Shown here in pieces: positions 1,033 to 37,485 of a DNA stretch of 64,000 nt. A program made the translations under genes and the position numbers. Positions within the stretch are counted from its first letter, which is position 1, and every line of letters begins with the position of its first letter. A model generated the notes under the pieces. The model saw nothing but the letters and a program-made list of their open reading frames with translations. It did no database searches and had not been told where the DNA came from. The DNA lies in NCBI GenBank assembly GCA_963718565.1, contig OY970364.1, positions 1,632,001 to 1,696,000 on the forward strand. Reading direction: 5' to 3'. This DNA comes from an uncultured Verrucomicrobiae bacterium. GTDB lineage: Bacteria > Chlamydiota > Chlamydiia > Chlamydiales > Rhabdochlamydiaceae.

Positions 1033-1683
1033 ATGTTATACCGCGCGCAGGAAGGTTTTGTGAATTTGGACTCAGCGAGGCAAAGCACAATCGAAGCTTG
1101 CGGTCCGAATGACGAAGCCATAGTGAAAACTATGGCTGCGGAGACACGAGAAGGTCTAGTAGACCTTCGCAGTGCAGAGCAGGTGAACGAAGCGAACGGG
1201 GAGGATCGATTGGGCAAAGCCGCAGCCAGTCCAAATTCACAAAACCTGACGGAGCGCGGTATATTTGCTAAACATACCACACACTCCCCCGAAGAAACTC
1301 ATCGTTTAGGAAAAGCCTTTGGCCAATCCCTAACTTCCGGTTCCATCATTGCTTTCTTTGGAGACCTCGGTGCAGGTAAAACGACTTTTATTCGCGGTCT
1401 TGTCGATGGGATCGGCTCAGTCGATATGAGAAACGTGTGCAGCCCAACGTTCACTCTCTTGAATATCTACAATGGGGACAAAATGGTATTTCATTTCGAT
1501 CTTTATCGACTCCCTAGAGAAGAAGAATTTTTTGCCGCTGGATTTGATGAATATTTTAAAGCTGGGGGCATTTGTTGCTTGGAATGGGCTGAAAAAATTA
1601 CCTCCTCGCTCCCTACTCATACTTTCAAGGTCATTTTTTCTCACCTCGGAGAAAAAACAAGACAAATTGAGATTTTAAAATGA
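1033..1683 (+). CDS. tsaE: tRNA threonylcarbamoyladenosine biosynthesis ATPase TsaE carrying a 75-aa in-frame palindromic-element insertion
   Basis: GDLGAGKTTF Walker A, SPTF, HFDLYRL and EWA motifs; residues 3-77 are encoded by the inverted-repeat element at 1037-1263. Confidence 0.93.
   Translation: MLYRAQEGFVNLDSARQSTIEACGPNDEAIVKTMAAETREGLVDLRSAEQVNEANGEDRLGKAAASPNSQNLTERGIFAKHTTHSPEETHRLGKAFGQSLTSGSIIAFFGDLGAGKTTFIRGLVDGIGSVDMRNVCSPTFTLLNIYNGDKMVFHFDLYRLPREEEFFAAGFDEYFKAGGICCLEWAEKITSSLPTHTFKVIFSHLGEKTRQIEILK
1037..1263. mobile_element. Palindromic MITE/RPE-like element, family H, in-frame in tsaE
   Basis: 36-bp TIR tataccgcgc-N7-ggttttgtgaatttggact with TA at both ends; internal hairpins and shared module at 1135-1200. 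Confidence 0.9.
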
Positions 1684-2327
1684 AAAAAAAAGCTGCATTT
1701 ACCCAAGCGCAATTTATCGCCTCGGCATATTCACAGGATTGTTTTCCCAAAATAGTCACCCCCTCTGGCCATCTGATGCCGGAAATTGCCGTTGTAGGTC
1801 GCTCGAATGTCGGAAAATCTTCCTTAATTAATCATCTTCTTAAGAGCAAGCTAGCAAAAACTTCATCCGCTCCTGGCAAGACGCGATCGATTAATTTTTT
1901 CTCTGTCGATGAGCAGTTTGTCCTTGTCGACCTCCCTGGTTATGGTTACGCTAAGGCGCCCAAACAAGTCAAAGCCCAATGGGTGGATATCATTGATCAC
2001 TATTTGCAAAACCGCTCCACATTGCAATTGATCTTGTTCTTGCTCGATTCCCGACGCCAACCCTCAGAAGAGGACCTCGCTTTTGTCCAATGGGCATCGT
2101 TTCATCAAAAGTCTCAGCTCATCATTTTTACTAAAACAGACAAGACGAGCGAAATGGAAAAAAAGAAAAATACCTTGGCCGCATTGGATTCCCTAAAAAA
2201 AATTCAAAATTCAGCTTGCCCATGCTTTCTTCATTACTCAATTAAAGATCCGCACGCTAGAATAGAACTTATCCACAAAATTAATAATCTGTTATCTAAA
2301 GAGCGAGTTCAAAATGGGCCTAATTAA
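1680..2327 (+). CDS. engB: GTP-binding protein EngB/YihA
   Basis: GRSNVGKSS, PGKT, DLPGYGYA and TKTDK GTPase motifs. Confidence 0.95.
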   Translation: MKKKAAFTQAQFIASAYSQDCFPKIVTPSGHLMPEIAVVGRSNVGKSSLINHLLKSKLAKTSSAPGKTRSINFFSVDEQFVLVDLPGYGYAKAPKQVKAQWVDIIDHYLQNRSTLQLILFLLDSRRQPSEEDLAFVQWASFHQKSQLIIFTKTDKTSEMEKKKNTLAALDSLKKIQNSACPCFLHYSIKDPHARIELIHKINNLLSKERVQNGPN

Positions 2328-3063
2328 CAAAGATGTGTTCGTCTGTTTAGACTGCGAAACTACCGGGCTCGAAACCGATAAAGATCGCATTATCGAAATC
2401 GCGATGGTGCGATTTGACTTCGATCAAACAGTGGAATCGTTTGAAACGCTGATCGATCCTCAGATGCCTATTCCAGAAGTTTCCATTGCCATTCACCATA
2501 TCAATGATATCATGGTGAAAGGGAAACCGAAAATTCAGGAAATTCTTCCAAAGGTTTTTGAGTTTGTTGGGAAATCCATCCTTGTAGGGCATGGCATCCC
2601 TAACGATATCGCTTTTCTCTGCGCCGCTGCAAAACAACATCAGATCCCTTGCAAGCTCGCTTCGCATCCCTATTTGGACACTTTGCGGTTGGCCCGACTT
2701 TATGGCGAAAGCCCCATCAATTCTTTAGAAAAACTTCGCCAGCACTTCAACATTGCCGAAGAGGGAGCTCATCGCGCAATGAATGATGTGGTCGTGAACA
2801 TCGAAGTCTTCAAATATCTTGCCCGACGCTATAAAACGACAGAGCAAATCGTCAATCGACTTAAAAGCCCGATTCAGCTTAAAGCGATGCCTCTTGGAAA
2901 ACATAAGGGGCGTTTCTTTTCTGAAATTCCAGTGGAGTATTTACGCTGGGCTGTCAACCAGAACTTCGATCAAGATCTACTTTTCTCTTTGAAAACGGAA
3001 TTAAAAAAACGCAATAAAGGAATCCAATTCGGACAAGCAGCAAGTCCCTTTGCAAATCTTTAA
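2314..3063 (+). CDS. dnaQ: DEDDh 3'-5' exonuclease, DNA polymerase III epsilon-like, with C-terminal DUF3820-like domain
   Basis: LDCETTG, HGIPNDI and HRAMNDV motifs; C-terminal MPLGKHKG...YLRW. Confidence 0.88.
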   Translation: MGLINKDVFVCLDCETTGLETDKDRIIEIAMVRFDFDQTVESFETLIDPQMPIPEVSIAIHHINDIMVKGKPKIQEILPKVFEFVGKSILVGHGIPNDIAFLCAAAKQHQIPCKLASHPYLDTLRLARLYGESPINSLEKLRQHFNIAEEGAHRAMNDVVVNIEVFKYLARRYKTTEQIVNRLKSPIQLKAMPLGKHKGRFFSEIPVEYLRWAVNQNFDQDLLFSLKTELKKRNKGIQFGQAASPFANL

Positions 3064-4273
3064 GAGTGTGTTTGTGAAAAAATTGCAATTACAAGATTTA
3101 GATCCCCAAGGAAAAAAAGTCCTGGTTCGCGTTGATTTCAATGTTCCTTTAAGCAAGGATGGTTCGGTTGTTGACGATACTCGAATTAGAGAATCCCTAC
3201 CCACTATTCAATATATTTTAAAATCAGGCGGAAGCGCAATTTTGATGAGCCATTTGGGAAGGCCAAAGGGAACTCCTGATCCTCAATTTTCGCTAATTCC
3301 TTGCGCTAAAGCTCTTTCAAAATTGCTCGGAATACCCGTGCAAATGGCAGAAGATTGCATCGGCGAAAAAGTAGAAAAAATAGCGAGCGATTTGAAACCT
3401 GGGCAAGTTCTTCTCTTGGAAAATTTGCGTTTTCATCCCGCCGAAGAAAAACCTTCTATAGACCCCACTTTTGCAAAAAAGCTCGCACGTCTTGGCGATA
3501 TCTATGTCAACGACGCTTTTGGAACTGCGCATCGCATGCATGCTTCGACAGCGGCGATTGCACAGTATTTTCCAGGAAAATCCGCTGCAGGCTTTCTCAT
3601 GCTAAAAGAGATCCATTTTCTCAGCTCACTGCTAAATCCCAAGCGTCCTTTTTACGCCATTATTGGAGGAGCAAAAATTTCTACGAAAATGGGAGTGCTT
3701 AAGTCTCTCCTTTCAAAAACAGATGGTATTTTCATCGGCGGAGGTATGGCCTTTACATGCTACCTTGCCCAAGGGATCAAGATTGGAAACTCTATTCATG
3801 AAGACGACCAGATTCCAGTTGCCACTGAATTTCTAAAAGCATGCGATGAAAAAAAAATTCCTTGCTGGCTGCCTGAAGACTTGATCATTGCAGATGCCTT
3901 CCGCGATGATGCGCAAAGTCAGTGCATTACCGCCTCTCAGGGAATTCCTGATGGCTGGCAAGGGATGGACATTGGACCTGAAACAGTGGAAAAATGGAGC
4001 ACAATCTTAAAAAATGCGGAAACTATTTTTTGGAATGGCCCTCTTGGCGTGTTCGAATTCCCCCATTTTGCTAAAGGGACAGAGCAGATTGCTAAAGTAC
4101 TCTCATCTCTTAAGGCAATCACTGTGATTGGAGGCGGAGATTCTGTCGCTGCGGTTCATCAACTGGGGTTGATCTCATCATTTACCCATGTATCGACCGG
4201 TGGGGGAGCTTCATTAGAGTTTATTGAATACGGCCATCTTCCCGGCATCGAAGCTTTGACCGGAGTTAACTAG
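3050..4273 (+). CDS. pgk: Phosphoglycerate kinase (true start may be GTG 3074)
   Basis: RVDFNVP, SHLGRP, LLENLRF, NDAFGTAHR, GGGDS and STGGGASLE motifs. Confidence 0.98.
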   Translation: MQIFKSVFVKKLQLQDLDPQGKKVLVRVDFNVPLSKDGSVVDDTRIRESLPTIQYILKSGGSAILMSHLGRPKGTPDPQFSLIPCAKALSKLLGIPVQMAEDCIGEKVEKIASDLKPGQVLLLENLRFHPAEEKPSIDPTFAKKLARLGDIYVNDAFGTAHRMHASTAAIAQYFPGKSAAGFLMLKEIHFLSSLLNPKRPFYAIIGGAKISTKMGVLKSLLSKTDGIFIGGGMAFTCYLAQGIKIGNSIHEDDQIPVATEFLKACDEKKIPCWLPEDLIIADAFRDDAQSQCITASQGIPDGWQGMDIGPETVEKWSTILKNAETIFWNGPLGVFEFPHFAKGTEQIAKVLSSLKAITVIGGGDSVAAVHQLGLISSFTHVSTGGGASLEFIEYGHLPGIEALTGVN

Positions 4274-4357
4274 TTTTAGATTGACAGAGCAGGCAATAGA
4301 TGCTGCAATCGAGGCCCATCGAATTAGGATTGTTACTCAATTTTGGGCGGAAACTGC

Positions 4358-4632
4358 TTCGCGATGGTATAGAAAGGGTTGTTAATGGTACGTCCTTAAA
4401 AACTCATGGCAAAAGTTGAAGACCATTTGGATCCATGCCTGATTGAGATCGATAAATGCAAAGCCTGGCATGGATCCAAATGACATTCAGTGCTTGCCAT
4501 AGGTTTTTGAGGACGTACTGTTAATGATTTATAACCTCCGCGGCTCTGCGTCTTTGCGTTGATCCCCTGCCGACTGTGTTCGTACAGGCGTTACAGGGGG
4601 CTAAAAGAACCAATTTTTGAAGTTTCTTCAGT
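4358..4632 (+). repeat. Dispersed repeat family D, copy 1, interrupted by a family C MITE
   Basis: After removing 4388-4526 it is nearly identical to the reverse complement of 9126-9261. Confidence 0.88.
4388..4518. mobile_element. MITE family C (131 bp) with 8-bp TSD
   Basis: TIR gtacgtcct(t/c)aaaaac..atggcaa; TGTTAATG duplicated at 4380-4387 and 4519-4526; the empty site is visible in the second D copy. Confidence 0.9.
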
Positions 4633-4633
4633 G

Positions 4634-4661
4634 TATGCGGCGAGGAGTTTTGCAATTCCCT
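4634..4661. mobile_element. MITE family A, solo terminal fragment
   Basis: tatgcggcgaggagttttgcaattccct, matching the ends of 41771-41950 and 53421-53498. Confidence 0.8.
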
Positions 4662-4771
4662 CTTTAAATTAATTTAGAAAGTGTCTTCAAATTAAAATGA
4701 TTTGAACACACTCTCTTATCAATTTGAGAAAAATTTAATTTTTAGTTTCAAATACATCGGCTGGTTAATCG

Positions 4772-4799
4772 TTGTCAAATAAGGTAAAACCGCTATAAT
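4772..4799 (+). promoter_or_regulatory. Putative sigma66 promoter of the NTT gene
   Basis: TTGTCA, 16-nt spacer, perfect TATAAT, 43 nt upstream of the ATG at 4843. Confidence 0.6.
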
Positions 4800-4842
4800 G
4801 GCCCCATCTTTTAAGAACTGCTCCATATAACCTAGGCGAGAT

Positions 4843-6420
4843 ATGTCTTCTGCGACAGGTTTTGGTAGAATCCGGGCTTTCCTTTGGCCGATCTACCGTC
4901 ATGAGCTGAAAAGGTTCGTTCCTTTACTCTTGATCTTCTTTCTCGTCGGATTTAACTACAGCCTTTTGCGCGGAACAAAGGATGCTCTTGTCGTTACCGC
5001 TCCTTCGTCTGGAGCAGAAGCATTGCCCTACTTGAAGGTCTGGGCGATTGTTCCGATGGCATTTCTTTTTACATTTATTTTTACACGCGTTTCAAACCGC
5101 CTATCCAGGGAAAAAATATTTTACGCGATGATGAGCATTTTCATCGCCTTTTTCTTGTTCTTCATGTTTGCCCTTTATCCCTTTCGAGATGCGCTTCACC
5201 CGCACTCTGTTTGCGATGAGATTCAAAAACTACTTCCTCAAGGTCTGCAGGGATTTGTCGCCATCTTTAGAAACTGGACCTTTACCCTGTTTTACATTAT
5301 GGCTGAGATGTGGAGCACGATCATCATGACTGTGCTAGCCTGGGGGTTTGCAAATGATGTGACAAGCGTTAACGATGCCAAACGCTATTATGGGCTTTTA
5401 GGAATTGGAATCAACCTTTCCGGGGTTGTCGCTGGATCTGTCGCCACTTCGATGTCGCAAAACACATTCTACCCAGGCCTGCCCTTTGGAGCGACTGCTT
5501 GGGACCAGACAGTGTTCCTCTTATGTAGTATTTTTGTTCTCGCAGGTGGCTTATGCATGGCCCTCTTTCGCTATATCCATACCCAAGGTCATGGTTACAA
5601 CGCTCCCTCCTATCACGCTCAAAATAAGGGTATGGAAGAAGTAAAAATGGGATTGCGTAAAAATTTTGCTTATTTAGCCAAGTCCAAATATTTGATCTGC
5701 ATCGCGGTCATCGTCGTCATGTACAATATCGCGATTAATCTTGTTGAAGTTGTCTGGAAAGACCAGGTCAAACAACTTTACCCCAACCCTTCGGATTTCA
5801 ATGCCTATATGGGACAAGTTTTAACTTGGATCGGTATTGTAGCAACCATCATCAGCGTATTCATTTCCAGTACGATTATTCGTAAATTCAGCTGGACAAC
5901 AAACGCTCTCATCTCGCCGATGATCCTGCTGACAACCGGCATTGCCTTCTTTTTCTTCTTCTTTTTCAAAGACTCTAGTTTTGCCTCCTTTGCTTCCTGG
6001 TTTGGCACAACCCCACTTGCCCTATGCGTCTTTTTTGGGTCCTTGCAAAATTGTCTTGCCCGCGCCTCTAAATATACTCTTTTTGATGCCACCAAAGAAC
6101 TTGCCTTCATTCCTCTGAGTAAAGAATGCAAATTAAAAGGAAAAGCAGCGATCGATGGTGTCGGATCCCGCATTGGAAAATCAGGCGGATCGCTCATCCA
6201 TACCAGCTTGCTCATGGTTTTTGGCACAGTTTCGCTCAGCACTCCCTATGTCGGCTTTCTGCTTTTATTCGTGATCGCGGCATGGACGACGGCTGCTTTT
6301 TCGCTTGGAAAACGCTTTAACGATCTCGTCTCTCATCAAGAAACTCTTAAAGATCCCGACGAAGAGCAAGAACCTGTTCTTCAGCCAGTGATGGCCGACT
6401 CTTCCGCTATACCGAAATGA
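4843..6420 (+). CDS. Nucleotide transport protein (NTT/TLC ATP/ADP translocase family), Npt2-like by neighbourhood
   Basis: Multi-TM protein with FNYSLLRGTKD, WGFAN, KYTLFDATKELAFIPL and KGKAAIDGVGSRIGKSGGS; last codons and stop lie inside a family B element. Confidence 0.93.
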   Translation: MSSATGFGRIRAFLWPIYRHELKRFVPLLLIFFLVGFNYSLLRGTKDALVVTAPSSGAEALPYLKVWAIVPMAFLFTFIFTRVSNRLSREKIFYAMMSIFIAFFLFFMFALYPFRDALHPHSVCDEIQKLLPQGLQGFVAIFRNWTFTLFYIMAEMWSTIIMTVLAWGFANDVTSVNDAKRYYGLLGIGINLSGVVAGSVATSMSQNTFYPGLPFGATAWDQTVFLLCSIFVLAGGLCMALFRYIHTQGHGYNAPSYHAQNKGMEEVKMGLRKNFAYLAKSKYLICIAVIVVMYNIAINLVEVVWKDQVKQLYPNPSDFNAYMGQVLTWIGIVATIISVFISSTIIRKFSWTTNALISPMILLTTGIAFFFFFFFKDSSFASFASWFGTTPLALCVFFGSLQNCLARASKYTLFDATKELAFIPLSKECKLKGKAAIDGVGSRIGKSGGSLIHTSLLMVFGTVSLSTPYVGFLLLFVIAAWTTAAFSLGKRFNDLVSHQETLKDPDEEQEPVLQPVMADSSAIPK

Positions 6421-6698
6421 ATTCAAGATTTGGAAATTTGGCAAGGCTGCGGATACTTTGAAAATGTCCAGTGGATATTTTCAAAGAGGAGCAGGTGAGC
6501 AAAGCGAACCGGCCCGGAGGGCGCCCTGAATTTGAGCCAGCATATGCGGCGCTGCTGCGGACACTTATCAAAAGAGCACGATTGCTCTTTTGTAAGAGAA
6601 GCAGGCACAACTTGAATAAGTTGTGCGATGCAGGCGGGCTCAAATACAGCGGCTGCCCGACGTAGCCAGAAACCAAATCCTGAGTTCATTTCGGTATA
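6408..6698. mobile_element. Palindromic element family B, long form (291 bp) with two inserted modules
   Basis: TIR tataccgaaatgaa(t/c)tca(a/g)gatttgg with TA ends; colinear with 18118-18291 apart from inserts at about 6446-6516 and 6554-6597. Confidence 0.92.
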
Positions 6699-6739
6699 AG
6701 TAATCAGATTAAATACGATGATATGTTATAAATAATATT

Positions 6740-7366
6740 ATGGAATACCTGACAGAAATCATTACTCGTCACGCCCATCATGCTCATTGGTATCTATTTA
6801 TTGCGATCATTCTAGCCGGATTTAATATTCCTTTTAGCGCGGATCTTCTCATATTGCTTGCAGCGATTTTAGCTGCGACAGTTGTCCCAGAGCACACATG
6901 GCTCCTTTTTTATAGTATTTTATTTGGCTGTTATTTTTCTGCGATGTGCGCATATTGGCTCGGCAGGTTAATTGGAACCGCGCTGAGCAAGAGAAAGTTT
7001 TTTTCAAAACTCCTCAGCGCTCACCGCCTCTCCAGGATTAAACAATTTTATGAGAAATATGGCCTTTGGACACTTGTCATTGGCCGGTTTATTCCATTTG
7101 GTGTGCGTAATTGCATCTTTATGTCTTCGGGAATGAGTAAACTGCACTTTGGAAAATTTGTTCTCATGGATGCCTTTGCCTGCATTCTTTGGTGCAGTAC
7201 ATGCTTCTATTTGTTCTTCGCCCTCGGTCAAAACTATGAGGCCATTTGGCATTATCTTAAGACCTTTAATCTGTTAATTTTCGCTGCTTTCAGTGTGACG
7301 GTAATTGGCATTATTTGGTATAAAAGTAGGAAGAAGATACGGAAGAAAAACCTATCAACAAATTAG
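6740..7366 (+). CDS. DedA family membrane protein
   Basis: Hydrophobic 208 aa; YWLGR and FYEKYG...IGRFIPFGVRN..FMSSG motifs. Confidence 0.9.
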   Translation: MEYLTEIITRHAHHAHWYLFIAIILAGFNIPFSADLLILLAAILAATVVPEHTWLLFYSILFGCYFSAMCAYWLGRLIGTALSKRKFFSKLLSAHRLSRIKQFYEKYGLWTLVIGRFIPFGVRNCIFMSSGMSKLHFGKFVLMDAFACILWCSTCFYLFFALGQNYEAIWHYLKTFNLLIFAAFSVTVIGIIWYKSRKKIRKKNLSTN

Positions 7367-18117: not shown

Positions 18118-18291
18118 TATACCGAAATGAATTCAAGATTTGGGAATTTGGCAAGGAGGCGCCCTGAATTTGAGCCAGTGTATGCGGCGCCGAAGCAGCA
18201 CAACTTGAATAAGTTGTGCGATGCAGGCGGGCTCAAATACAGCGGCTGCCCGACGTAGCCAAAAACCAAATCTTGAGTTCATTTCGGTATA
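18118..18291. mobile_element. Palindromic element family B, core form (174 bp)
   Basis: TIR tataccgaaatgaa(t/c)tcaagatttgg with TA ends; apical hairpin gcacaactt-gaat-aagttgtgc. Confidence 0.92.
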
Positions 18292-22305: not shown

Positions 22306-23421
22306 AGACGACACTTCAAATAGTTCCTAATTGCCTGAGCTTTTTCAGCAAACGTAGAACTTTGCCCATATTGGTCGTAAAAAGCATGTTCTCCGCATCC
22401 CCAATAATCATTGGCGAAAGTTTTGATCTTATATAGTTCTCCGTAGATTGCATTTCTTTTCGCTTCTGGCATCTTTGAAAATAGCTCAAGAGCTTCCCGA
22501 GTGGTATCCAAAATCCCTCTTTCAAACAAACTCGCTCTTTCTAACAACCCAGCAATCCTTTCAAACATCGTGCTGTAAGGTACTGCAAAGTTAAAGACCC
22601 TGATGATACTATCATTAGTAGTACCAAAAAAAACTTCTCCACCAGCAACAGCAACGTAGGGAGTCGAGTTTGCACGCCCATAAAAATCGGCGATGCATTC
22701 ATACTCATAAAGAGCGATGCAGTCATTTGTTTGTGTATCCCGGACATTGATGAAGGCGTAAGAAGCCACCAAATAGCTTGAAAAGAGCTTCTCGCGAAAA
22801 AGAGCAAAGGAATGAAAGCCGTCTCCTCCCTCACAAATAGTGATGAGGCATTGATGTGTTTGCGTATTCCAGACCTTGACTGTGTTATCAAAAGAGCTAG
22901 AAAAGAGTTTCTTCTCCTTGTCAATAACAGCAAGGCAGGAAACCGAGTTTTGATGCCCATTAAGAGTGGCGAGGCATTGATGTTTTCGTATATCCCAGGG
23001 CCTGATTGTGTTATCCTCAGAATTTGAAAATTGATGTTTTTGTGTATCCCAGACATTGATTGTGTGATCCTCAGAGCCTGAATAGAGTGTCCATCCATCA
23101 GCAGTAGTAGCGAGGCAGAGAACTGAGCGTTGATGTCCAACAAGAATGGCGAAGCATTGATGTGTTCGTGTATTCCAGACCCTGATTGTTTTATGCTCAG
23201 AACCTGAATAGAGTGTCCCTCCATCAGCAGTAGTAGTGATGCAGCGAACTGCGAGTTGATGTCCATCGAGAGTGGTGATGTATTTATTTGTTCGCATATC
23301 CCAGACCTTGATTTCGCCATTCTGAGAACCTGAAAAGAGTTTCTTGCCCTTACCATCAGCAGCAAGGCAGCAAACTCCATGCGCATCAAGAGCGGCCATA
23401 CATTGATTTGTTTGTATGTCA
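22287..23421 (-). pseudogene. F-box/WD40 protein, 3' part (WD40 repeats plus C-terminal domain), cut off by an IS
   Basis: Repeated GH..V.CL....LYSGS.D.TI.VWD units; joins 25461-25924 in frame when the IS and one TCA are removed. Confidence 0.9.
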
Positions 23422-23442
23422 CAGTGGGGTGTAATCTTTCTT

Positions 23443-24861
23443 TCAGAAATTCACAACATTACCAGTAAAAAATCCAGTATGATCCAGTCCCCCATTATCT
23501 AGAGGCAGCTGCCCTCGTTTTTTCTTCCGTTTCCTAAAAGGATTAAAGAGCTGACGCCTTTGCGAATAAATTGTCTCGCCAATATTCATTGCGGCCCACG
23601 CTTTCACTTGTTTTTTGTTACAGGTTCCTAGTGCTGCTTGAACAGTTTCTAAGTCTAACTTTCCCAGACAGGCGGCCAATGACAGCACAAAAGGGGTAAA
23701 TCCGTCCTTTGAGTCTTCATCCATCAATTGCTTTAACTTACCAAAACTAGACTCAATAATTTCTGTGCTACCTAAAGCCACTTGATCGAGGTCTTTTGTC
23801 TGATCAATCACGAAATCAAGGATACTGCCTGCAAACTGATCAGCACGGACCCCTACTTGCAGGTTCTGTAGCTCTTTTTCCAACTCCTCTGCAGTTTTGT
23901 TGTGGAGGTGTTCTGTTCGAATTTTTTGTCTTACGATTCTCCCAATGAGCAACATCTCGGATATTTCCTTGATCATAGGCTCACTGGATCTGACCCATCC
24001 AAATTGCTCAAGCAATTCCCTCAAGTCCGCCTCGCTCTTTTCGACCTCACAATTCTTCTGTTCTATTTTTTTCTGATGTTCATTTTCCATTTTTTTGAGG
24101 TGATCTAGAATTTTATTTGCCCAGCCGGTTAGTTCGTCAAGATTCATATATCTAGCTTTACTCCTCTGACTCGGAGGGCATAGTGCTGCCCATTTCGTCC
24201 ATTGGAGTTTCTGCTTCATCTGAGAGGCTTTCGACGCAAATTCTGTCCATTCAAGTTCCGCAGCTTCCACCCCCAACAAGTTGGCTATTTTGTGAGCAAT
24301 ATCATTCATTACGGGAATTTTTCTGCCTTCGGCTTCTTGGACGCTCTGCGTATACAATCTGGTTGCAGATACAATATCCGATCCTTGATCATGACAAAAT
24401 TGTCTGTATTGACCTACTGTCTCTTCACTTTTCTTGAGAATCTCATAGATGATTGGGCCACTTGTTTTTTCCAAAACCTCCAGGTGCAGAACGTGTACGT
24501 CTTCAAATGTCAATGCCTTAGCTTTCAAAAAAGTCGTAGCCCGTACGCCCAGAATCAAAAGACATTTTTTTGAGCCAATCTGAATAGATAAATCGATCAT
24601 CCCAATCCAATCATTTGATTTCTGAATTGAGGTCAGCTTGTAATAACCCACCTGCAAGATCCAATCGCGAATCGCAGTATGAGAGGGCATTTTGCATTGT
24701 AGCCAAAAATAACAGCGAATGAACGCCTCTCTGGCTCCGCGAAGGCTTAGTCCTCCTGAAAGAATCAATAGGAGCGATATCAGGATAACAGTTGCCGAAT
24801 AGCGCCGACGAGGGATTTTTTTGTCTTGTTCCCCCGGGAGGCTTGTTGCTGCATCTGCCAT
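23443..24861 (-). CDS. Putative DDE transposase (OrfB) of the IS
   Basis: Fills the element; candidate catalytic D (IDLSIQIG), D (HDQGSD) and E (STEIIESSFGKLK), plus a DIAH motif. Confidence 0.8.
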   Translation of the reverse strand: MADAATSLPGEQDKKIPRRRYSATVILISLLLILSGGLSLRGAREAFIRCYFWLQCKMPSHTAIRDWILQVGYYKLTSIQKSNDWIGMIDLSIQIGSKKCLLILGVRATTFLKAKALTFEDVHVLHLEVLEKTSGPIIYEILKKSEETVGQYRQFCHDQGSDIVSATRLYTQSVQEAEGRKIPVMNDIAHKIANLLGVEAAELEWTEFASKASQMKQKLQWTKWAALCPPSQRSKARYMNLDELTGWANKILDHLKKMENEHQKKIEQKNCEVEKSEADLRELLEQFGWVRSSEPMIKEISEMLLIGRIVRQKIRTEHLHNKTAEELEKELQNLQVGVRADQFAGSILDFVIDQTKDLDQVALGSTEIIESSFGKLKQLMDEDSKDGFTPFVLSLAACLGKLDLETVQAALGTCNKKQVKAWAAMNIGETIYSQRRQLFNPFRKRKKKRGQLPLDNGGLDHTGFFTGNVVNF

Positions 24862-25157
24862 TTTTTTTTAAGTTCTTCGAACTCTTTAGCATGGGTAACA
24901 GCCTCTTGTTCGCGTAATTTTCTTTCTGCCTCGATCAAAGCCTCTTTTTCTGCGATTTCATTTTTTAAGGCTTTATTTTCTTGAGTTTTTTCTTCACACT
25001 TCTTTTTCCACTGGGCTCTACTGTGCTCAAGATCTAATGCTTTACCCTCTAGTGCCTTAATTTTTTCTGCTTTCTCGCGATTTCTCGCTTTGAATTCATC
25101 GCGACTCTCGCAAAGACGATGGCTTCGCTTACGCCAATCTCGTGATGGAACATTCAT
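24780..25157 (-). CDS. IS OrfA, coiled-coil protein, probably fused to OrfB by frameshift
   Basis: AGGAG RBS; K/E-rich helix; A9 run at 24861-24869 with OrfB in the -1 frame. Confidence 0.75.
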   Translation of the reverse strand: MNVPSRDWRKRSHRLCESRDEFKARNREKAEKIKALEGKALDLEHSRAQWKKKCEEKTQENKALKNEIAEKEALIEAERKLREQEAVTHAKEFEELKKKWQMQQQASRGNKTKKSLVGAIRQLLS

Positions 25158-25460
25158 AGAGCTGCTCTCCTAAAATTAAGACGAGCCATTTTGCATGATT
25201 GTTTTAACAGAGTCAAAAAAATTTCCTTAGAAGAGAATTTTCAATATCCCCCTACAAAGTATTGCATCAATAAAGCCCGATACATCGAGAGCGGCTCTTC
25301 CTGAGCCGATCTCGATGTATCGGAACAGCGCCGTAGGACGCTGGGAATATAACTGGGATGAGTCAGAGGGTTTAATATCAGAGGGGGGATGTTACCGTTT
25401 CTTGCCGGAATTGTTGCTCAGAGAAAATTTCAAATATGGATCAAAGTTTACACCCCAATG

Positions 25461-25924
25461 TCACAGACCTTGATTGTGTGATCTGAAAGGCCTAAAAAGA
25501 ATCTCTCGTCAGTAGCGGCAAAGCAGGTAATTGAGTTTTTATTAGTTGAGTTTTCACGCTCTTGAAGCATATAAAAATCATACACTCCATGTCTAAGATT
25601 TGAATCAAAACTTTGAAGGGCCTGATGAGCTTGGTAAGCCTCCTGAAAGTCTTTGTCTTTAATAGCATTTGGGTCCACATTTGAAAAATCCCTTTTAAAC
25701 AGTACGCACCAAAGATACTTATCGTTTAGCATCAGGTTCCACTGCCTGCAGACCAATTTACACGTTCCAATTTTCAGTGCAGAAAAGTCTTTAAAAAATT
25801 GAAAGAATATCTCGAAGGGCACCCTTAAGGCTGGATCTGAGGATGCCACTAGAGCTGGAGCAGCCTGCGATATCGCAACGATAAAGTTTGAATCATTTTT
25901 TGAACAATTTATAGATGGGGTCAT
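25461..25924 (-). pseudogene. F-box/WD40 protein, 5' part (F-box and first WD repeat)
   Basis: VPFEIFFQFFKDFSALKIGTCKLVCRQWNLMLNDKYLW F-box pattern; reads into the IS end. Confidence 0.88.
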
Positions 25925-29942: not shown

Positions 29943-30186
29943 TATACTGCGCCCAGCCTAAAAATATGAATTTAGGGAGTCTTAGAACAGCCCAGGCTTG
30001 AGCGAAGCAAAGCGCTCGTGACGAGGAGGTACTAAATTAATACCTCCGAGGCTGCGGACACTTTGCAAATGTCCGGTGGACATTTGCGAAGGGAAGCAAG
30101 TGAGCGAAGCGAACCGGGAAGATCGTTCAAAAATGGGCTGTTATAATGGCCCCGTAAATTCACATTTTTAGGCTGGACGCAGTATA
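29943..30186. mobile_element. Palindromic element family F (244 bp) containing the shared module
   Basis: TIR tatactgcg(c/t)ccagcctaaaaat(a/g)tgaattta with TA ends; module at 30051-30118. Confidence 0.9.
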
Positions 30187-31158: not shown

Positions 31159-31248
31159 GGAAAGATGGCTGAGTGGCCGAAGGCACGTCCCTGCTAAGGA
31201 CGCGTACCCGCTAAACGGGTACCGAGGGTTCAAATCCCTCTCTTTCCG
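31159..31248 (+). tRNA. tRNA-Ser(GCT)
   Basis: GGAAAGA/TCTTTCC acceptor, cgtcc-CTGCTAA-ggacg anticodon arm, long variable arm, GGTTCAAATCC; CCA not encoded. Confidence 0.97.
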
Positions 31249-31260: not shown

Positions 31261-31285
31261 CCCTGAAATCTTTCAGGGTTTTTTT
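31261..31285 (+). terminator. Rho-independent terminator after tRNA-Ser
   Basis: ccctgaaa-tc-tttcaggg followed by T7. Confidence 0.8.
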
Positions 31286-31315
31286 ATCTTATAGAGCCTA
31301 TAAAAGGAGATTGCT

Positions 31316-31435
31316 ATGTTCTGCAAAGTCTTATTTATCATGCTTTTCTCGGTTTTCACCACTTTTTCCTATGCAAATTTTAGCGCATGCGATTTATCTC
31401 ACAAAGATGTTCCCTCAATTATACATTCTTCTTAG
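31316..31435 (+). CDS. 39-aa small ORF with signal-peptide-like sequence (possibly a truncated gene)
   Basis: AAAAGGAG RBS; MFCKVLFIMLFSVFTTFSYANFSACDLSHKDVPSIIHSS*. Confidence 0.4.
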   Translation: MFCKVLFIMLFSVFTTFSYANFSACDLSHKDVPSIIHSS

Positions 31436-31495
31436 AAGATTGCATAAATATCCCTAAGTCACAATACTTCAAAGATACTTCCCACCAGGTGCCCT

Positions 31496-32947: not shown

Positions 32948-33008
32948 TTACCAATGGGTTACACGAAAAATCTCCCGAGCATTGGCCTCTGCTAATTTTT
33001 TATTTTAG

Positions 33009-33095
33009 AGGGAATTGCAAAACTCCTCGCTGCATAAAACGGCAAGCCAAGATTTGAACTGATTTCGCGAGCGAAGCGAGTGAAATTAGTCCAAA
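33009..33095. repeat. Family A solo end followed by a GCGAAGC-capped hairpin
   Basis: agggaattgcaaaactcctcgctgcataaaa (33009-33039); tttgaactgatttcgcga-gcgaagc-gagtgaaattagtccaaa (33053-33095). Confidence 0.75.
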
Positions 33096-33202
33096 CCCAA
33101 GTATAATCCCTTTACTTTTTCTTATTTTGCTTATAAACTCGCCATTTACTTTTTAATAGACCCTTTTTAAGTTGATATTTAGATCAGGGAGCATTATTCT
33201 CT

Positions 33203-33289
33203 ATGGCATCTGTAAAGAAAAAACGCCGTGCTAAGATCGCAAAGCACAAAAGAAAAAAAAGACGCCGCCGTGATCGGCACAAAAAATAA
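33203..33289 (+). CDS. AURKAIP1/COX24-domain small basic protein (bS22/mS38-like ribosomal protein)
   Basis: MASVKKKRRAKIAKHKRKKRRRRDRHKK*; below the ORF-track size cutoff. Confidence 0.88.
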   Translation: MASVKKKRRAKIAKHKRKKRRRRDRHKK

Positions 33290-33322
33290 CTCTAAAAATT
33301 AGAGTTGTTTCGAGAGGGCCTC

Positions 33323-33496
33323 TATACCGAAACAACATGAAGAATTGAAATTTTGGCAAAGCTGGCGCCCAAAGTTTGAACCAGCGAAGCGGCGACGAAG
33401 CAGCACAACTTGAACAAGTTGTGCGATGCAGGCGGGATCAAAATCTGGGATGTCCAGCGCAGCCAAAAAACCGATTCTTCATGTTGTTTCGGTATA
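33323..33496. mobile_element. Palindromic element family B, diverged subfamily (174 bp)
   Basis: TIR tataccgaaacaacatgaagaat; same length and apical hairpin as 18118-18291. Confidence 0.88.
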
Positions 33497-33559
33497 AACT
33501 TAAGCAATGAAAGTCTATTGCAGTAGGGGTTTTTGTCATTACTCAATCCGTTCTTTTTG

Positions 33560-33629
33560 ACCTGAGTTTTGGACTTTTTTTATAGTAAACTGGGCGCAGT
33601 ATGGTATGAAATGAACCCAAAACTCAGGT
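33560..33629. mobile_element. MITE family E, short form, containing a family F end
   Basis: acctgagttttgg...ccaaaactcaggt with internal ctgggcgcagtat. Confidence 0.75.
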
Positions 33630-33639
33630 TTTTTAAATC

Positions 33640-35472
33640 ATGTGGACATACCCAGAAGAATTTGATGTCATTGTCGTAGGTGCCGGACACTCGGGTTGTG
33701 AAGCTGCACATGCAGCTGCAAAAATGGGAGCCAAAACTCTCCTATTGACAATGAATCTGGACACGATCGCCAAGATGAGTTGCAATCCGGCTGTTGGGGG
33801 GACCGCGAAGGGACATATCGTCCGTGAAATCGATGCTCTTGGCGGGATCATGGGAAAAGTGACGGATCAAACAGGAATTCAGTTTCGGATGCTGAATGCC
33901 TCCAAAGGGCCAGCTGTCTGGTCTCCACGAGCGCAAACGGATAAGTTCGCTTACGCAGCCGCCATGAAACATCGCCTCGAGAAAGCCCCCAACTTGTTGA
34001 TTAAGCAAGGGACCACGGAATCTCTTGTTGTTGCAGGAAATAAGATCTGCGGACTCGCAACCCTGGAAGGGATTGGCTATCAAGGTAAAACCCTTATCAT
34101 TTCCTCTGGGACATTTATGCGAGGCTTGATCCATATTGGACAGGCCCAATTTCCAGGCGGAAGGGCGGGAGATAAGCCTTCCGTGGGTTTGTCTGCCCAT
34201 TTAGAATCGCTTGGGTTTAGATTAGGACGGTTAAAAACAGGCACACCACCGCGCATCAACCGACGCAGTATCGACTTTTCTCAAATGCAAGAGCAGCCTG
34301 GAGAAGAAGGCATCCGTTTTTCTTACGATGAAGCGGAAGGTCCAGGCCTTCCCCAAGTCCCATGCCACATCACTTATACTAACGAGGAGACCAAGAAAGT
34401 CATCCGCGAAAATCTCCATCTTTCTCCGATGTACTCCGGACAAATCAAAAGTATTGGTCCAAGATACTGTCCTTCCATTGAAGATAAAATCGTCCGATTT
34501 GCAGATAAAGAGCGGCATCAATTGTTCCTCGAACCCGAAGGTTTAAACACGGAAGAAATTTACGTTAACGGAATTTCATCCTCTCTTCCTTTCGATGTCC
34601 AGCTCCGCATGCTGCATACGATTCAAGGACTGGAAAAAGCAGAAGTCATGCGCCCCGCTTATGCGATCGAATACGACTACGTGAAAAGCGGACAGCTTTA
34701 TTCCACTTTAGAAACTCAACTTATCGAAGGTTTGTTCTTCGCGGGACAAATCAATGGGACAACAGGATATGAGGAGGCGGCGGGGCAAGGCCTCATTGCT
34801 GGAATCAATGCCGCATTGAAAGTTGCTAGCAAACCTCCTTTTGTCCTCAAGCGCTCTGAGGCATACATCGGCGTCATGATCGATGAGCTCATTTCTAAAG
34901 AACTCGATGAGCCTTATCGCATGTTCACAAGCCGTGCAGAGCATCGTCTGCTGCTTCGTCAAGATAATGCCGATCTGCGTTTGCGCGAATTTGGGTACCA
35001 TTTGGGATTGATTGACTCCGGACGTTATCAACGGCTCCAAGAAAAGAAAACATGCATAGAATCTGAAATTGCCCGACTGACCAAAACGTACTGTCAAGTT
35101 AATGGAAAATCGATATCTCTTGCACAGCTTCTCTGTCGTCCAGAATTTACCTGCCAAAAAATTTTGGAAGAATTCTCCGATCGTGTCACTGATTACGGCC
35201 CAGAGATCAACTTCCAAATTGAGCTGAACTTAAAGTATGCAGGATATATTGAAAGGCAGACGCAAGAAGCGGCCAAATTGGAAACGATCGAACGTTTTCT
35301 GATTCCCAAAAATTTTAATTTTTTAGAAGTCACAGGATTAAGCAATGAGGCACGTGAAAAACTCCATCGTATTCAACCTTCCAATCTCGGGCAAGCTTCC
35401 CGCGTTTCCGGTGTTTCCCCAGCAGATATCTCCGTTTTAATGGTTGCACTCAAACAAAATCAAAAAAGGTGA
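33640..35472 (+). CDS. mnmG: tRNA uridine-5-carboxymethylaminomethyl modification enzyme MnmG (GidA)
   Basis: [47 protein letters not shown] and YRMFTSRAE motifs. Confidence 0.99.
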
Positions 35473-35475
35473 TTC

Positions 35476-36417
35476 ATGACCAGCTCAGATTCACTCCCGA
35501 TCATTTTGGTCGTTTCTGCGGACAGCTACAAAAGCGCTTTTTTTAAACGCACGCTGCAAGGGTTATTTTATGTGATCGATGCCACTGATAGTTTTACAGC
35601 CGTTGATTGGCTGAAAGGCGTGCACGCTTCCCTCATTATTCTCGATGAAAAAACTCTCTCAAACACATGGCCCATTATCGCCGATCATATTAGAACCTTA
35701 AGCGGCTATCGCGAGGTTCCTCTTTTATTGATCACTAATAACCTTAAAAAAAATTTTCTCGTTAAAGCGCTAAATATGGGGATTACCGATTTTCTCAATG
35801 AGCCTTTCGATGCGGATGAAGTATTTCAGCGTATTCTTGTCGCTACTCAATCAAAGCCCGTGACAAAAAAAATCACTCTAATGGCTAAAAAATTCAAAAA
35901 AACGCCCTCCATATCCCCTGCTAAACTCTCTTCACCTCAACGTTTTGTCATTACTGAAGATGCCATCAAAGAAATTGCGACAGTGCAGCGAAAACATCAA
36001 TCGATGTGTTTGCTGCTCTTAGAAATGGATGGCTTTCAAAAAATCGCCCAGGAAGTTGGCGAGGGAGGGGCGCAGAAACTCCTCTCGCATATTCAACATC
36101 TGTTCAAAACTCATCAACGGCGCCTAGACGTCATCTTACCTCAAGGCAATGGCCGGTTTTTATGGATGTTGCCCAATACTTCTCATCGCGCCGCAATGAC
36201 AATAGCGGAGACTTTGCGCAAAGAGATTCAAGAAAAACCGTTTCCTATCAAATCGCATTCCATTCCGCTCTCTTTATCGATTGGAGTCGTCACTCTCGAT
36301 AAAAACTCTGTCTTGTCTCAAAGCGCCTATGACCAATTCGGCTCTTTACTAGGAAAAGTTGACCGTGCTCTTAATAAAGCCAAGCAAAAAGGCAATCAAA
36401 TTATTTCGGAGAAGTAA
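35476..36417 (+). CDS. Receiver-domain plus degenerate GGDEF-domain protein
   Basis: REC-like N-terminus (LIILD, GITDFLNEPF); GGDEF fold landmarks with the signature replaced by GNGRF. Confidence 0.8.
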   Translation: MTSSDSLPIILVVSADSYKSAFFKRTLQGLFYVIDATDSFTAVDWLKGVHASLIILDEKTLSNTWPIIADHIRTLSGYREVPLLLITNNLKKNFLVKALNMGITDFLNEPFDADEVFQRILVATQSKPVTKKITLMAKKFKKTPSISPAKLSSPQRFVITEDAIKEIATVQRKHQSMCLLLLEMDGFQKIAQEVGEGGAQKLLSHIQHLFKTHQRRLDVILPQGNGRFLWMLPNTSHRAAMTIAETLRKEIQEKPFPIKSHSIPLSLSIGVVTLDKNSVLSQSAYDQFGSLLGKVDRALNKAKQKGNQIISEK

Positions 36418-36430
36418 TACTTGGAAAAAT

Positions 36431-37132
36431 ATGTTTCAGGTGCTTCGATTAAAATCTTATCCCATTTTTGACCAACTTCTCCTCGAAGAGAAACTCTTGC
36501 GTTCTGATTCAGGCAATTGGTGTCTGATCAATGAAGGCTCAACACCTGCGATTGTGATGGGCATTTCTGGGAAAAAGGAGGAATGGGTCGATTGTGCAAG
36601 AGTTGCAGAAGATAAGATCCCTTTGATTAAACGATTCAGTGGTGGCGGGACCGTCTTTGTCGATGAGGACACTTTGTTCATTACTTTCATTTGTCAAAAG
36701 CAGCTTCACAATTTTCCTGCTTATCCCGAGCCAATCATGCGATGGACAGAACAGATTTATGCGCAAGCGTTCCAACACCCTGGATTTTGCCTAAAAGAAA
36801 ATGATTATGTCATCGAAGATCGAAAATTCGGCGGTAATGCACAATACATCAAAAAAGATAGGTGGCTGCATCACACTTCCCTTTTATGGAATTTCTCTTC
36901 CGAAAAGATGCAGTATCTGCTTCATCCTAAAAAAACGCCTTCCTACCGCTCTGGACGCCCGCATGAGGAATTCCTTTGCCGGCTCTCGGAATATTTTGCT
37001 GATAAGGAAGAATTCATTGAACGGGTTATCCATGAAATTGGGAAACGCTTCCCTATTCAGAAAATTTCTCTGGAAGAAGCGCAATCCATCCCTCAACATT
37101 CCACTCGTCAATCAACTAAAAGATATGGGTAA
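36431..37132 (+). CDS. lplA: Lipoate-protein ligase A family
   Basis: KRFSGGGTVF, KFGGNAQ and HHTSLL motifs; start placed at ATG 36431. Confidence 0.9.
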   Translation: MFQVLRLKSYPIFDQLLLEEKLLRSDSGNWCLINEGSTPAIVMGISGKKEEWVDCARVAEDKIPLIKRFSGGGTVFVDEDTLFITFICQKQLHNFPAYPEPIMRWTEQIYAQAFQHPGFCLKENDYVIEDRKFGGNAQYIKKDRWLHHTSLLWNFSSEKMQYLLHPKKTPSYRSGRPHEEFLCRLSEYFADKEEFIERVIHEIGKRFPIQKISLEEAQSIPQHSTRQSTKRYG

Positions 37133-37166
37133 TAACATGTGTCCGCGTTTCCGACATATGAAATGG

Positions 37167-37256
37167 AGGCATTACTTCAATGCCTAGCCTCAACACTTTG
37201 ATTTACACCCCCAAAATTTACAAAAATTGCCTCAAAATCTAAGACAATTTACTATA
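37167..37256. mobile_element. Family E internal fragment abutting a family A element
   Basis: aatgcctagcctcaacactt..tttacaccc and gacaat(t/c)tactata match 62903-63147. Confidence 0.8.
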
Positions 37257-37257
37257 G

Positions 37258-37485
37258 AGGGAATTGCAAAACTCCTCGCCAGCAGAAAATCGATGATTTT
37301 GGCACCTGTTGCCAGAACCCGCACAGCGGGTTCGGTTGGCGGCGGCGAAAGCATACTTGGATAAGTTGGCTGCGAAGACACGAAAAGGTCCGGGGAACCT
37401 TCGTAAGTAGCAAAGCAGGTGAGCGAAGAGCGAACCGGGGCCGAAGGCAGCCGCCGCCAAGGCAACAGGTGCCAAAAGCGCGATT
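37258..37485. mobile_element. MITE family A, long form with the shared module, right TIR missing
   Basis: Colinear with the reverse complement of 41771-41950 plus an ~80-nt insert at 37369-37448. Confidence 0.88.

Follow-up and report, generated by a model that had tools for sequence, protein, structure and literature searches.

A multi-hairpin module within fold-back elements of different families in a chlamydial genome

Small fold-back repeats of several families in a chlamydial genome carry one and the same hairpin module, about 70 bases long, in their interior. The module may well be a conserved cassette of two or three hairpins that lacks machinery of its own and is one of the parts from which the mosaic fold-back MITEs of this chlamydial family are assembled, and we regard the case for this reading as evenly poised. 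Compensatory changes that keep the pairs of the module amount to strong covariation, the genome and its relatives are full of small fold-back repeats, and there was no sign of autonomous mobility of the module. In the literature we found no description of small fold-back repeats in environmental chlamydiae, only work on transposases.

Module copies and their host elements

The window, i.e., the whole stretch of 64 kb that was analyzed, lies in a 2.28-Mb genome (one contig, 95% complete), which was scanned with R1, a covariance model of the module. The elements and module copies in the window are:

1039–1261, + strand: H-type palindromic element, long form; TA at 1037–1038 and 1262–1263; a single long fold-back hairpin (−64 kcal/mol, z −9.9)
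1134–1200, + strand: module in H; HP1 1136–1182, HP2 1183–1197; R1 88.9 bits, E 7.8e-20
6410–6696, + strand: B-type palindromic element, long form; TA at 6408–6409 and 6697–6698; fold −79.8 kcal/mol, z −11.5
6445–6524, + strand: module in B, site 1; HP1 and HP2 6445–6512, HP3 (GCCC-GGA-GGGC) to 6524; R1 81.3 bits
6553–6604, + strand: partial module in B, site 2; HP1 unit only (CTGC-GGACAC-stem-GCAG); −21.2 kcal/mol, z −4.9
18120–18289, + strand: B-type short form, without module at sites 1 and 2
29945–30184, + strand: F-type palindromic element, long form; TA-flanked
30050–30117, + strand: module in F; R1 79.2 bits
33325–33494, + strand: second B subfamily, short form; identity to B about 78%
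37257–37486, + strand: A-type palindromic element, long form; right outer repeat absent in this copy; inner part folds at −55.4 kcal/mol, z −8.0
37368–37450, + strand: module in A; HP1 and HP2 37368–37438, HP3 half and linker to 37450; R1 75.4 bits
41770–41949, − strand: A-type short form; both outer repeats; AGGAGA in place of the long-form module

A preliminary description of this DNA had placed the module in H, F and A and twice in B, the second time in a shorter version. All five places were confirmed, with full copies at 1134–1200, 6445–6512, 30050–30117 and 37368–37438 and the shorter version at 6553–6604, and the sister copies named as free of the module (18120–18289, 33325–33494 and 41770–41949) indeed lack it. 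The 3′ motif of the module is matched exactly in all four full copies in the window; when up to two mismatches were allowed, shuffles of the window contained a mean of 0.95 matches, and four were reached in 1 of 100 shuffles. In the H module, HP1 is made up of the CTGC/GCAG base and the stem gaaggtct/agaccttc. The B module at site 1 is missing in the short copy 18120–18289. The 3′ half of the base of the partial module at site 2 comes from the host's own 'gaagcag', and in a relative the presence of this partial module is not tied to that of the module at site 1 (locus L021 versus L037). Direct reading of the H and B elements led us to reject a coding insert, because the reading frame differs between module copies.

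The module had been described as optional, and this is borne out across the whole genome, where every family has long and short forms: 25 long and 32 short for full-length A-type copies, 8 and 9 for H, 5 and 11 for B (at ≥97% identity), and 3 long forms with 1 full short form for F. The consensus sequences of the 25 long and 32 short A-type copies are identical except at the junction. The R1 scan gave 44 strong full-length matches (E 2.6e-20 to 1.8e-10) and a further 8, weak or partial, at E ≤ 1; the strong copies are hosted by A (26), H (8), B (5), F (3) and other repeats (2). The preliminary description had considered that the module might prove to occur mostly outside the elements. This is not so, because all 44 strong copies in the genome lie within repeats and none outside them.

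The host families had also been credited with unrelated termini, a claim that survives for A only, the terminus of which is different (GGGAATTGCAAAAC...); H, F and B all begin TA/TAC(C/T)G and end in the mirror image. H and F have internal blocks in common, with a 'gaRgatcgWt' block 3′ of the module present in both, and elements intermediate between the two occur in relatives. TA is found on both sides of the H, B and F copies in the window, and also of three long and two short F copies with both ends displayed. Terminal inverted repeats and a fold-back are present in H, B and F elements, as in MITEs of the IS630/Tc1-mariner type. The genome contains a resident IS630-family transposase (DDE_3, HTH_33) in 12 full and 2 truncated copies; the full copies have a 2-bp flanking repeat (TA in 11 copies, CA in the remaining one) and ends that begin with TACT. 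Thus H, F and B are TA-flanked elements with ends that start like those of the resident IS630, and A differs, although the similarity is confined to TA/TAC, plus a loose resemblance in B. The fold-backs of the host elements have z scores of −8 to −11.5, and in folds of H, B and A elements the module sits in the unpaired interior of the long fold-back, forming its own branch. Its proposed position just 3′ of the apical hairpin of the host was upheld in H and F, but not in A, where the preceding block is not a hairpin.

Fold and covariation

The first hairpin, HP1, combines a base of CTGC paired with GCAG, an internal loop rich in purines and a long stem of variable sequence; HP2 has the form GGTGA-stem-GAACC, with a conserved tandem G·A, and HP3 is optional. 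The preliminary description held that the inner hairpin varies in sequence yet stays paired and, in agreement with this, of the 14 pairs in the long stem, 12 had changed on both sides (56 sequences). In the module as a whole, both sides had changed at 17 of 25 pairs, in 122 cells versus 49 ± 5 in shuffles, and 82.3% of cells were paired versus 75.1 ± 0.5% in shuffles and 30–44% with partners slid; the sequences are related, so that the shuffle control overstates the signal, and the slid-partner control separates clearly too. The inner pair of HP2 is G-C in 30 sequences and A-T in 16, while in some genomes the GCGAAGC mini-hairpin is swapped for stems of 5–7 bp with unrelated sequence. Across genera, HP2 keeps both of its G·A oppositions and the internal loop stays rich in purines, which is more than a self-complementary duplex would need. 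Mismatches in the stems gave no strand signal (10 G·T versus 28 A·C, the latter inflated by misaligned long HP2 variants).

At the gathering score, Rfam 15 yielded only a tRNA in the window. When the threshold was relaxed to E ≤ 10, the A element gave no match and the B element gave three weak ones (E 0.71–3.9; 14–18 bits versus gathering scores of 72–85), which were to eukaryote families, i.e., a microRNA precursor (on both strands) and a Tetrahymena snoRNA. Known Rfam families were therefore rejected as the identity of the module, since none explains it. An intrinsic terminator was also rejected on direct reading, because the hairpins have no following T-run on either strand.

Edges, positions and exchange between families

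R1 matched 29 of 129 genomes of the same family, representing 11 of its 40 genera, and none of the 24 other families of the order. A pattern scan of genome contigs returned, among the matches listed, mostly chance matches in unrelated phyla, with the whole module, again among those listed, found only in chlamydial or Verrucomicrobia-labelled records. Within the genome, module copies cluster by host family at 93–99% identity and each host family has its own module variant, so that recent multiplication is by transposition of the host elements.

In two or more element superfamilies that are unrelated to each other, the module has G/GCTGCG (the slash marking the edge) as its left edge and GAACYGG, to which a short HP3 may be added, as its right edge. 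These boundaries recur in 40 flanked module copies from relatives, in named public records and in three H subtypes; every one of these subtypes has a long and a short form, with edges that are almost identical. The module can occupy several positions: in A-type elements it lies before or after the 'gaaagcatacttggataagt' central block, with the 'short-form' junction AGAAAA intact when it lies upstream, and in B-type elements there are three module sites. Immediately 3′ of the module, the sequence of H, F, A and B hosts opens with GARG, a pattern suggestive of a preferred target, and GARG is present at the filled or empty site in H, F and A and at B sites 1 and 2. Tandem full copies occur, as do a full copy joined to a 3′ half and a second full copy, an inverted pair, a duplicated 5′ half, and an array of 8.8 copies with a period of 83; the ORFs around the tandem array in one genome (G113) provided no lead.

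The HP1 stem of B-type hosts is of the 'ACGAGAAGGTCC' type in some genomes and of the 'CTTWGAAAATGTCC' type in others. Both types are found within one A-type element in G001, and F-type elements have one type here and the other in G003. That the two stem types are spread without regard to host family suggests that the module has been exchanged between families.

Short forms in H and A have 6–10 other bases at the module site, so that the junctions are not seamless. One H-type short form retains seven of the first nine bases of the module (GCTGAGGAA), which fits deletion better than insertion, and 'GAAGAGGATCG' resembles the 3′ half of HP3 in a related long form. A B-type element in the genome under study reads GCTGC-CCGACG-TAGCCA at a place where, in another genome, GCTGC and TAGCCA enclose a full module. 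Long B-type elements with both modules are 80–82% identical between this genome and G013, similar to the divergence of the genes, suggesting that the long form is old. Relatives have no element at the H site, and at the B site there was a small gene or a different element instead, the genes of the species compared being 67–88% identical, which is too distant for orthologous element copies. Metagenome contigs (window positions 600–7200) that skip 1143–1200, 6447–6519 or 6553–6604 provided no evidence on this locus; they are 150–170 nt long, fall wholly within repeats and derive from other, short-form copies.

Mobility, alternative explanations and known systems

The preliminary description had proposed a second-tier mobile or recombining unit. 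The part of that proposal that finds support is a discrete cassette with recurrent edges that is exchanged; mobility of its own, with the elements as a landing site, is not supported. We consider it very doubtful that the module is a minimal non-autonomous hairpin unit, inserted site-specifically by a trans-acting enzyme into single-stranded loops of fold-back elements, just 5′ of GARG and without target duplication. Identical left and right edges in unrelated hosts and at several positions are what such a unit would leave, as are the GARG that follows the module or marks its empty place in H, F and A and in B (sites 1 and 2), the hairpins near both ends, a location that is always in interior loops of the host fold, and the absence of target duplication, none having been seen at the module. 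However, 0 of 44 copies lie outside repeats, the junctions in H and A short forms are not seamless, and the presence of a separate module variant in each host family argues against recent hopping. Nor did an enzyme of its own come to light: the complete genome has 44 modules but no match to the Y1/HUH transposase (PF01797), the control being positive in 6 of 14 known genomes. In the family, PF01797 is found in 23 of 61 genomes with no link to presence of the module, and G030 has 34–37 module matches and no Y1 match. A co-occurring transposase flanked by the motif, as suggested in the preliminary description, did not emerge, since R1 (filters off) found nothing beside 8 Y1 loci of relatives (best E 0.18) and R1 was also negative on 9 sequences representing the resident IS families (best E 0.56). 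We therefore rejected an IS200/IS605 or RAYT system, as well as IS607/TnpB and the other resident IS families. Reverse transcription was also rejected, the sole reverse transcriptase being one frameshifted group II intron maturase. There was no replication-strand bias, the top strand being the leading strand in 19 copies versus 25.

That the module was present in a common ancestor, with short forms arising by internal deletion as in other MITEs and with no lateral movement, is unlikely, although H, F and B are related (in their TA/TACYG ends, the H/F 'gaRgatcgWt' block and the intermediates in relatives), and although the H short form with GCTGAGGAA, the likeness of 'GAAGAGGATCG' to the 3′ half of HP3, the age of the long B form and the B-type sequence at another genome's module place are all consistent with it. 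A-type elements carry the module at two positions despite their different ends, with the AGAAAA junction intact beside an upstream module, and the HP1 stem type does not track the host family. Tandem copies and inverted pairs require gains as well as losses, and the nearly identical edges in the H subtypes would demand repeated, near-identical deletions or recombination between copies. We think it improbable that the module is a putative structured RNA, cis-regulatory or protein-binding, that is used by the cell with the elements as mere distributors. Covariation in two stems, the conserved unpaired purines and tandem G·A, conservation in 11 of 40 genera and the location of copies within one element all on the same strand would be expected of such an RNA; yet no Rfam family explains the module, its orientation to flanking genes is random (22 same, 22 opposite, i.e., no transcription bias), the hairpins have no T-run, short forms are as numerous as long ones, and the top strand has no excess of G·U. 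We would also be surprised if the module were an entity in itself, whether as the smallest kind of hairpin 'hyperparasite', set directly 5′ of GARG in single-stranded loops of fold-back MITEs by a putative trans-acting enzyme, or as a new protein-binding RNA or ssDNA motif, carried by chlamydial MITEs, in which a long stem with its purine-rich internal loop is stacked on a tandem-G·A hairpin.

The explanation that we prefer, and to which we give an even chance, is that the module is a hitch-hiking cassette exchanged among MITEs via recombination or template switching. Because copies cluster by host family, it multiplies within a genome through multiplication of its host elements. Occasionally it would pass from one element family to another, reach new positions, and give rise to tandem or half copies. 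The probable routes are recombination, either illegitimate or guided by microhomology, and a switch of template from one repeat copy to another, e.g., during repair of the gap after excision of a cut-and-paste element, when hairpins would favor switches. The module may persist through selection on its fold on one strand, and the simplest putative benefit would be to the carrier element, in synapsis of its ends or in stabilizing either the fold-back itself or read-through transcripts. A function in read-through transcripts is not favored by the random orientation relative to neighboring genes. Against the hitch-hiking cassette, no recombination event was directly observed, and the edges of the module are more regular than random template switching predicts.

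BOX elements of pneumococcus and the BIME/REP mosaics of enterobacteria are modular repeats in which an internal module may be absent or repeated and units may be in tandem or inverted, and REPs accompany a RAYT (Y1) gene. The repeats described here resemble both in their modular build and in their tandem and inverted units; to our knowledge, no BOX module is common to families of elements whose ends differ. A GTAG or CGTC tag is reported for REPs (PMC3733652); the module has no such tag and is found in a genome with no Y1 gene. H, B and F are like MITEs of the IS630/Tc1-mariner type in their inverted ends, TA flanks, size of 170–290 bp, many copies and lack of coding capacity; the resident IS630 has TA flanks and TACT ends, of which the H, B and F ends match the first three bases, and loosely more in B. 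Compared with PATEs derived from IS200/IS605, the module is alike in its hairpins near the ends, absence of target duplication and short conserved motif beside one end, but differs in the absence of a Y1 transposase and of strand bias, in that the module is missing next to the 8 Y1 genes of relatives, and in its length of only about 67 nt. Correia repeat-enclosed elements of Neisseria are small, with inverted ends, and their length classes differ by an internal segment, the longest class alone having an extra functional IHF site that is proposed to aid synapsis of the ends in transposition (PMC2649163). The likeness lies in length classes set by an internal segment, as with the long and short forms here; the Correia segment, however, is confined to one element family, while the module is common to at least two unrelated superfamilies and has several positions, tandem copies and a multi-hairpin fold with covariation.

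A practical use of the R1 model is to flag repeat families at which assemblies of these genomes break. A block that keeps its fold in element families with different ends provides a handle on how MITE interiors are put together and exchanged in bacteria, and on whether these interiors contain parts of use to the element or to the cell. If site-specific insertion or protein binding were true, the module would be a minimal mobile or regulatory unit of a new kind, found in an obligate intracellular lineage for which genetic tools are scarce.

Copies and distribution of the module

Read in order, the full module comprises G-GCTGCG(G/A)A-N-AC, a hairpin that varies, AGCAGGTGA, GCGAAGC (or one of its variants) and GAAC(C/T)GG. 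In the window (G000:C1:1632001-1696000, from the single 2,284,058-base contig of this genome, G+C 43.6%), exact matches to its 3' motif start at positions 1178, 6490, 30095 and 37414, and with up to two mismatches a shuffled window contained a mean of 0.95 matches. The module is present at the five stretches where the preliminary description had placed it, and the sister copies without it lie at 18120-18289 and 33325-33494 (B-type) and 41770-41949 (A-type). The observation is genuine and far above chance expectation.

With one mismatch allowed, a regular-expression search for the 3' motif gave 44 matches in G000; 43 of these have the upstream hairpin and GCTGCG, and the remaining one is due to chance. 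A covariance model of the module (R1), trained on 24 copies, found 44 full-length matches in the genome (E = 2.6e-20 to 1.8e-10) and 8 additional partial or weak matches (E <= 1). None of the 44 full-length matches lies outside a repeat, and forms with the module (long) and without it (short) exist in every family of host elements, i.e., A, H, B and F.

Hosts of the 44 full-length R1 matches in G000, assigned by flanks, and numbers of long and short host copies
A family: 26 matches; 25 long, 32 short (full-length copies)
H family: 8 matches; 8 long, 9 short
B family: 5 matches; 5 long, 11 short at >=97% identity, with diverged subfamilies besides
F family: 3 matches; 3 long, 1 full short copy, plus fragments
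H-like host: 1 match, genome position 1290401
Further repeat, found also in another genome: 1 match, position 1719822

By a crude longest-ORF rule, 12 of the 44 module copies in G000 lie inside ORFs of at least 100 aa, which may be spurious or may represent in-frame insertions into genes. In-frame gene insertions are known for Rickettsia palindromic elements. The window also contains another short multi-copy repeat (4384-4632; about 133 bases at 99-100% identity at at least four other genome places) and a 90-nt tRNA (31159-31248), its sole Rfam match at gathering score.

In a first sample, R1 was positive in 16 of 61 genomes including G000, i.e., in 11 of 18 other genomes of its genus and 4 of 18 from other genera of the family, and in none of 24 other families of the order (one genome each). 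A wider family sample gave 29 positive genomes of 129, representing 11 of 40 genera; 40 candidates were scored, and some genomes fill all 40, so that counts there are lower bounds. Among the matches listed from a pattern scan of public contigs, chance matches dominate, and the records with a whole module are titled Rhabdochlamydiaceae, Candidatus Rhabdochlamydia, Chlamydiae, or Verrucomicrobia(e) MAGs.

Fold of the module

In HP1, the first hairpin, the base consists of four pairs (CTGC with GCAG); above it come an internal loop rich in purines (G-R-A-N-A opposite N-N-N-A) and a long stem of 8 to 14 pairs with variable sequence. HP2 (GGTGA...GAACC) follows immediately 3', with pairs in the order G-C, T-A, two G.A oppositions, G-C and C-G, and a GAA loop; the DNA mini-hairpin GCGAAGC is known for its high stability. 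In many copies a third hairpin follows, HP3 (GCCC-GRA-GGGC).

Among 56 different module sequences from G000 and other genomes, standard pairs occupied 82.3% of cells versus 75.1 +/- 0.5% after shuffling, and dropped to 30-44% when partners were slid by 1-3 columns. Both sides had changed in 17 of the 25 pairs, and cells changed on both sides numbered 122 versus 49 +/- 5 in shuffles, a control that overstates covariation because the sequences are related; covariation is nevertheless convincing from the slid control and from how many pair types occur. The earlier statement that the inner hairpin varies yet keeps pairing is borne out by both-side changes in 12 of 14 long-stem pairs. At the inner HP2 pair, 30 sequences have G-C and 16 have A-T; several genomes have the GCGAAGC hairpin swapped for unrelated stems of 5-7 pairs with loops such as TTG or TTTA, and in one genome the whole of HP1 is a perfect 23-pair hairpin.

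The G.A oppositions and loop purines are kept across genera, which points to a fold on the module's own strand, as RNA or single-stranded DNA, rather than a mere duplex palindrome. Counts of G.T versus A.C oppositions gave no strand signal (10 versus 28, the latter inflated by misaligned long HP2 variants). Over the 44 copies, module strand was unrelated to replication (19 versus 25) or to the upstream gene (22 same, 22 opposite, by crude ORF calls). Each of the three elements that were folded gave a single long hairpin (z -8 to -11.5), from whose interior the module branches separately.

Host elements and mobility

The host families had been described as having unrelated termini. This holds for A alone (GGGAATTGCAAAAC...): H, F and B share the left end TA|TAC(C/T)G and have its mirror image on the right. 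In both H and F the module is followed by the block 'ga(a/g)gatcg(a/t)t', and relatives carry H/F intermediates and one element that combines an F/H-like end with a B-like interior. An IS630-family insertion sequence (DDE_3 + HTH_33) is present in G000 as 12 full and 2 truncated copies; the full copies have ends starting TACT and a two-base flanking repeat (TA in 11, CA in 1). Because of their TA|TAC(C/T)G ends and this resident TA-flanked IS630, H, B and F are best read, from sequence, as TA-targeting MITEs of the IS630 superfamily; their ends match those of the resident IS630 weakly.

Other features of G000 and its relatives are:
Window 23419-25465 and 54096-56185: two IS copies, a 2040-bp IS (472-aa ORF without Pfam match; 6 copies in G000) and an IS4-like element (2085 bp, 608-aa DDE_Tnp_1 protein; 19 copies)
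G000:C1 ~2023774-2023945, outside the window: B-type module copy split in its HP1 stem by a ~65-bp palindromic element with ends resembling those of the 2040-bp IS, i.e., insertions nested three levels deep
G013:C4:447415-447585 (L240), plus four other places in this relative's genome: H-type short element
Window 6403-6708: B-type element between two conserved genes
G013:C7:147341-147825 and G003:C2:40280-40974: the same site in relatives, with 480-700 bases and seemingly a small gene on the opposite strand; in the latter there is additionally an A-like element whose module is reversed

The G013 H-type short elements are 96-99% identical to those of G000, with genes at ~75-80%, reflecting either a recent horizontal spread of the element across species or mixed binning; completeness of G013 is 64%.

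That the module is mobile in its own right is not supported: there were no solo copies, no flanking duplication around module copies, and no Y1 transposase in G000 (positive controls worked). Y1 genes occur in 23 of 61 family genomes, and the relative G030 has 34-37 module matches and no Y1. A search for a co-occurring transposase (HUH/Y1 or IS630) flanked by the motif had been suggested; R1 was negative beside eight Y1 genes of relatives and in nine representatives of resident IS families, including IS607 with TnpB. Reverse transcription was rejected as a route, the sole reverse transcriptase of G000 being this:
G000:C1:489438-490924 (L210:1165-2651): group II intron reverse transcriptase/maturase, frameshifted into 240-aa and 283-aa ORFs

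Each host family in G000 has its own module variant, and copies within a family are 93-99% alike; the recent increase of the module is therefore due to transposition of the carrier element.

Exchange and origin of the module

Across genomes, there was no correspondence between HP1 stem type and host type. In G000, A and H carry the 'ACGAGAAGGTCC' stem type, and B and F the 'CTTTG(A/C)AAATGTCC' type; in other genomes, the 'ACGAGAAGGTCC' type is found in B-type hosts and an F-like host, and both types occur within one A-type element. Position varies too. In A-type elements of G000 and two G001 copies the module is 3' of the central block, and in two other G001 copies it is 5' of this block, with the short-form junction intact. 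B-type elements can carry it at three sites. The full module occupies site 1. Site 2 lies just 5' of a host 'gaagcag' by which the base is completed, and has the HP1 unit alone, which can be present or absent independently of site 1 (L021 versus L037). Site 3 has a full module in another genome and just GCTGC-CCGACG-TAGCCA in G000. Long and short forms with almost the same edges exist in each of three H subtypes, which differ in their apical hairpins.

Within a single element, the module was found as two complete copies separated by 11 bases, as a complete copy together with a 3' half and a second complete copy of the other stem type, as an inverted pair, or with its 5' half duplicated. One palindromic element (L230:546-1273; G113:C2:201245-201972) holds a tandem array of 8.8 copies (period 83, 99% identity) with identical 17-nt linkers; the ORFs beside it provided no lead. 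With stem types crossing hosts, several positions per host and multiple or part copies, the proposed recombining structured unit stands, and exchange of the module among hosts, not just inheritance, is supported.

Several features favor insertion, or recombination into a site. In H, F and A, and at B sites 1 and 2, host sequence begins with GARG both where it follows the module and where the site is empty; the junctions are clean in B and two H subtypes; and the two-sided placement in A, the three B sites and the multiple or part copies point the same way. A true second-tier mobile element with GARG as target nevertheless seems quite improbable, the module lacking the signs of mobility of its own. 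Deletion is favored by one H short form in which the site reads GCTGAGGAA, matching the module start at 7 of 9 bases, and then GAAGAGGATCG, similar to the 3' half of HP3 in a related long form, and by B site 3 of G000, which resembles a module that has lost its interior. Also on the side of deletion, the long B form is 80-82% identical between two species, a divergence close to that of their genes, so that long forms are old. A purely ancestral part lost by deletion is unlikely all the same, given the exchange between hosts. The states with and without the module are both old and coexisting, and either can be moved by recombination between copies. We also rate a cellular functional RNA as quite doubtful.

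We give about even chances to our leading account, in which the module is a structured cassette that lacks its own machinery. Its carriers would amplify it, and recombination or template switching would transfer it between them, the switches probably occurring at the hairpins; it may be retained because the fold benefits the carrier or, with lower probability, the cell.

BOX and BIME mosaics have a modular build, as do the module-bearing elements; we know of no block in them that is common to element families with different ends and has a conserved multi-hairpin fold. The nearest parallel is the Correia element, which has three length classes, the longest alone with a possible IHF site proposed to aid end synapsis (PMC2649163); it is likewise not known to have such a block. 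For chlamydiae, the portion consulted of one paper covers transposases only, with 'palindrom' and 'MITE' occurring 0 times (PMC9723776). In agreement with the preliminary description, the literature searched (listings and main-text passages) yielded no description of such repeats in chlamydiae. As far as these sources extend, one block with a conserved multi-hairpin fold, common to families with different ends, is without a match in Correia, BOX or BIME elements.
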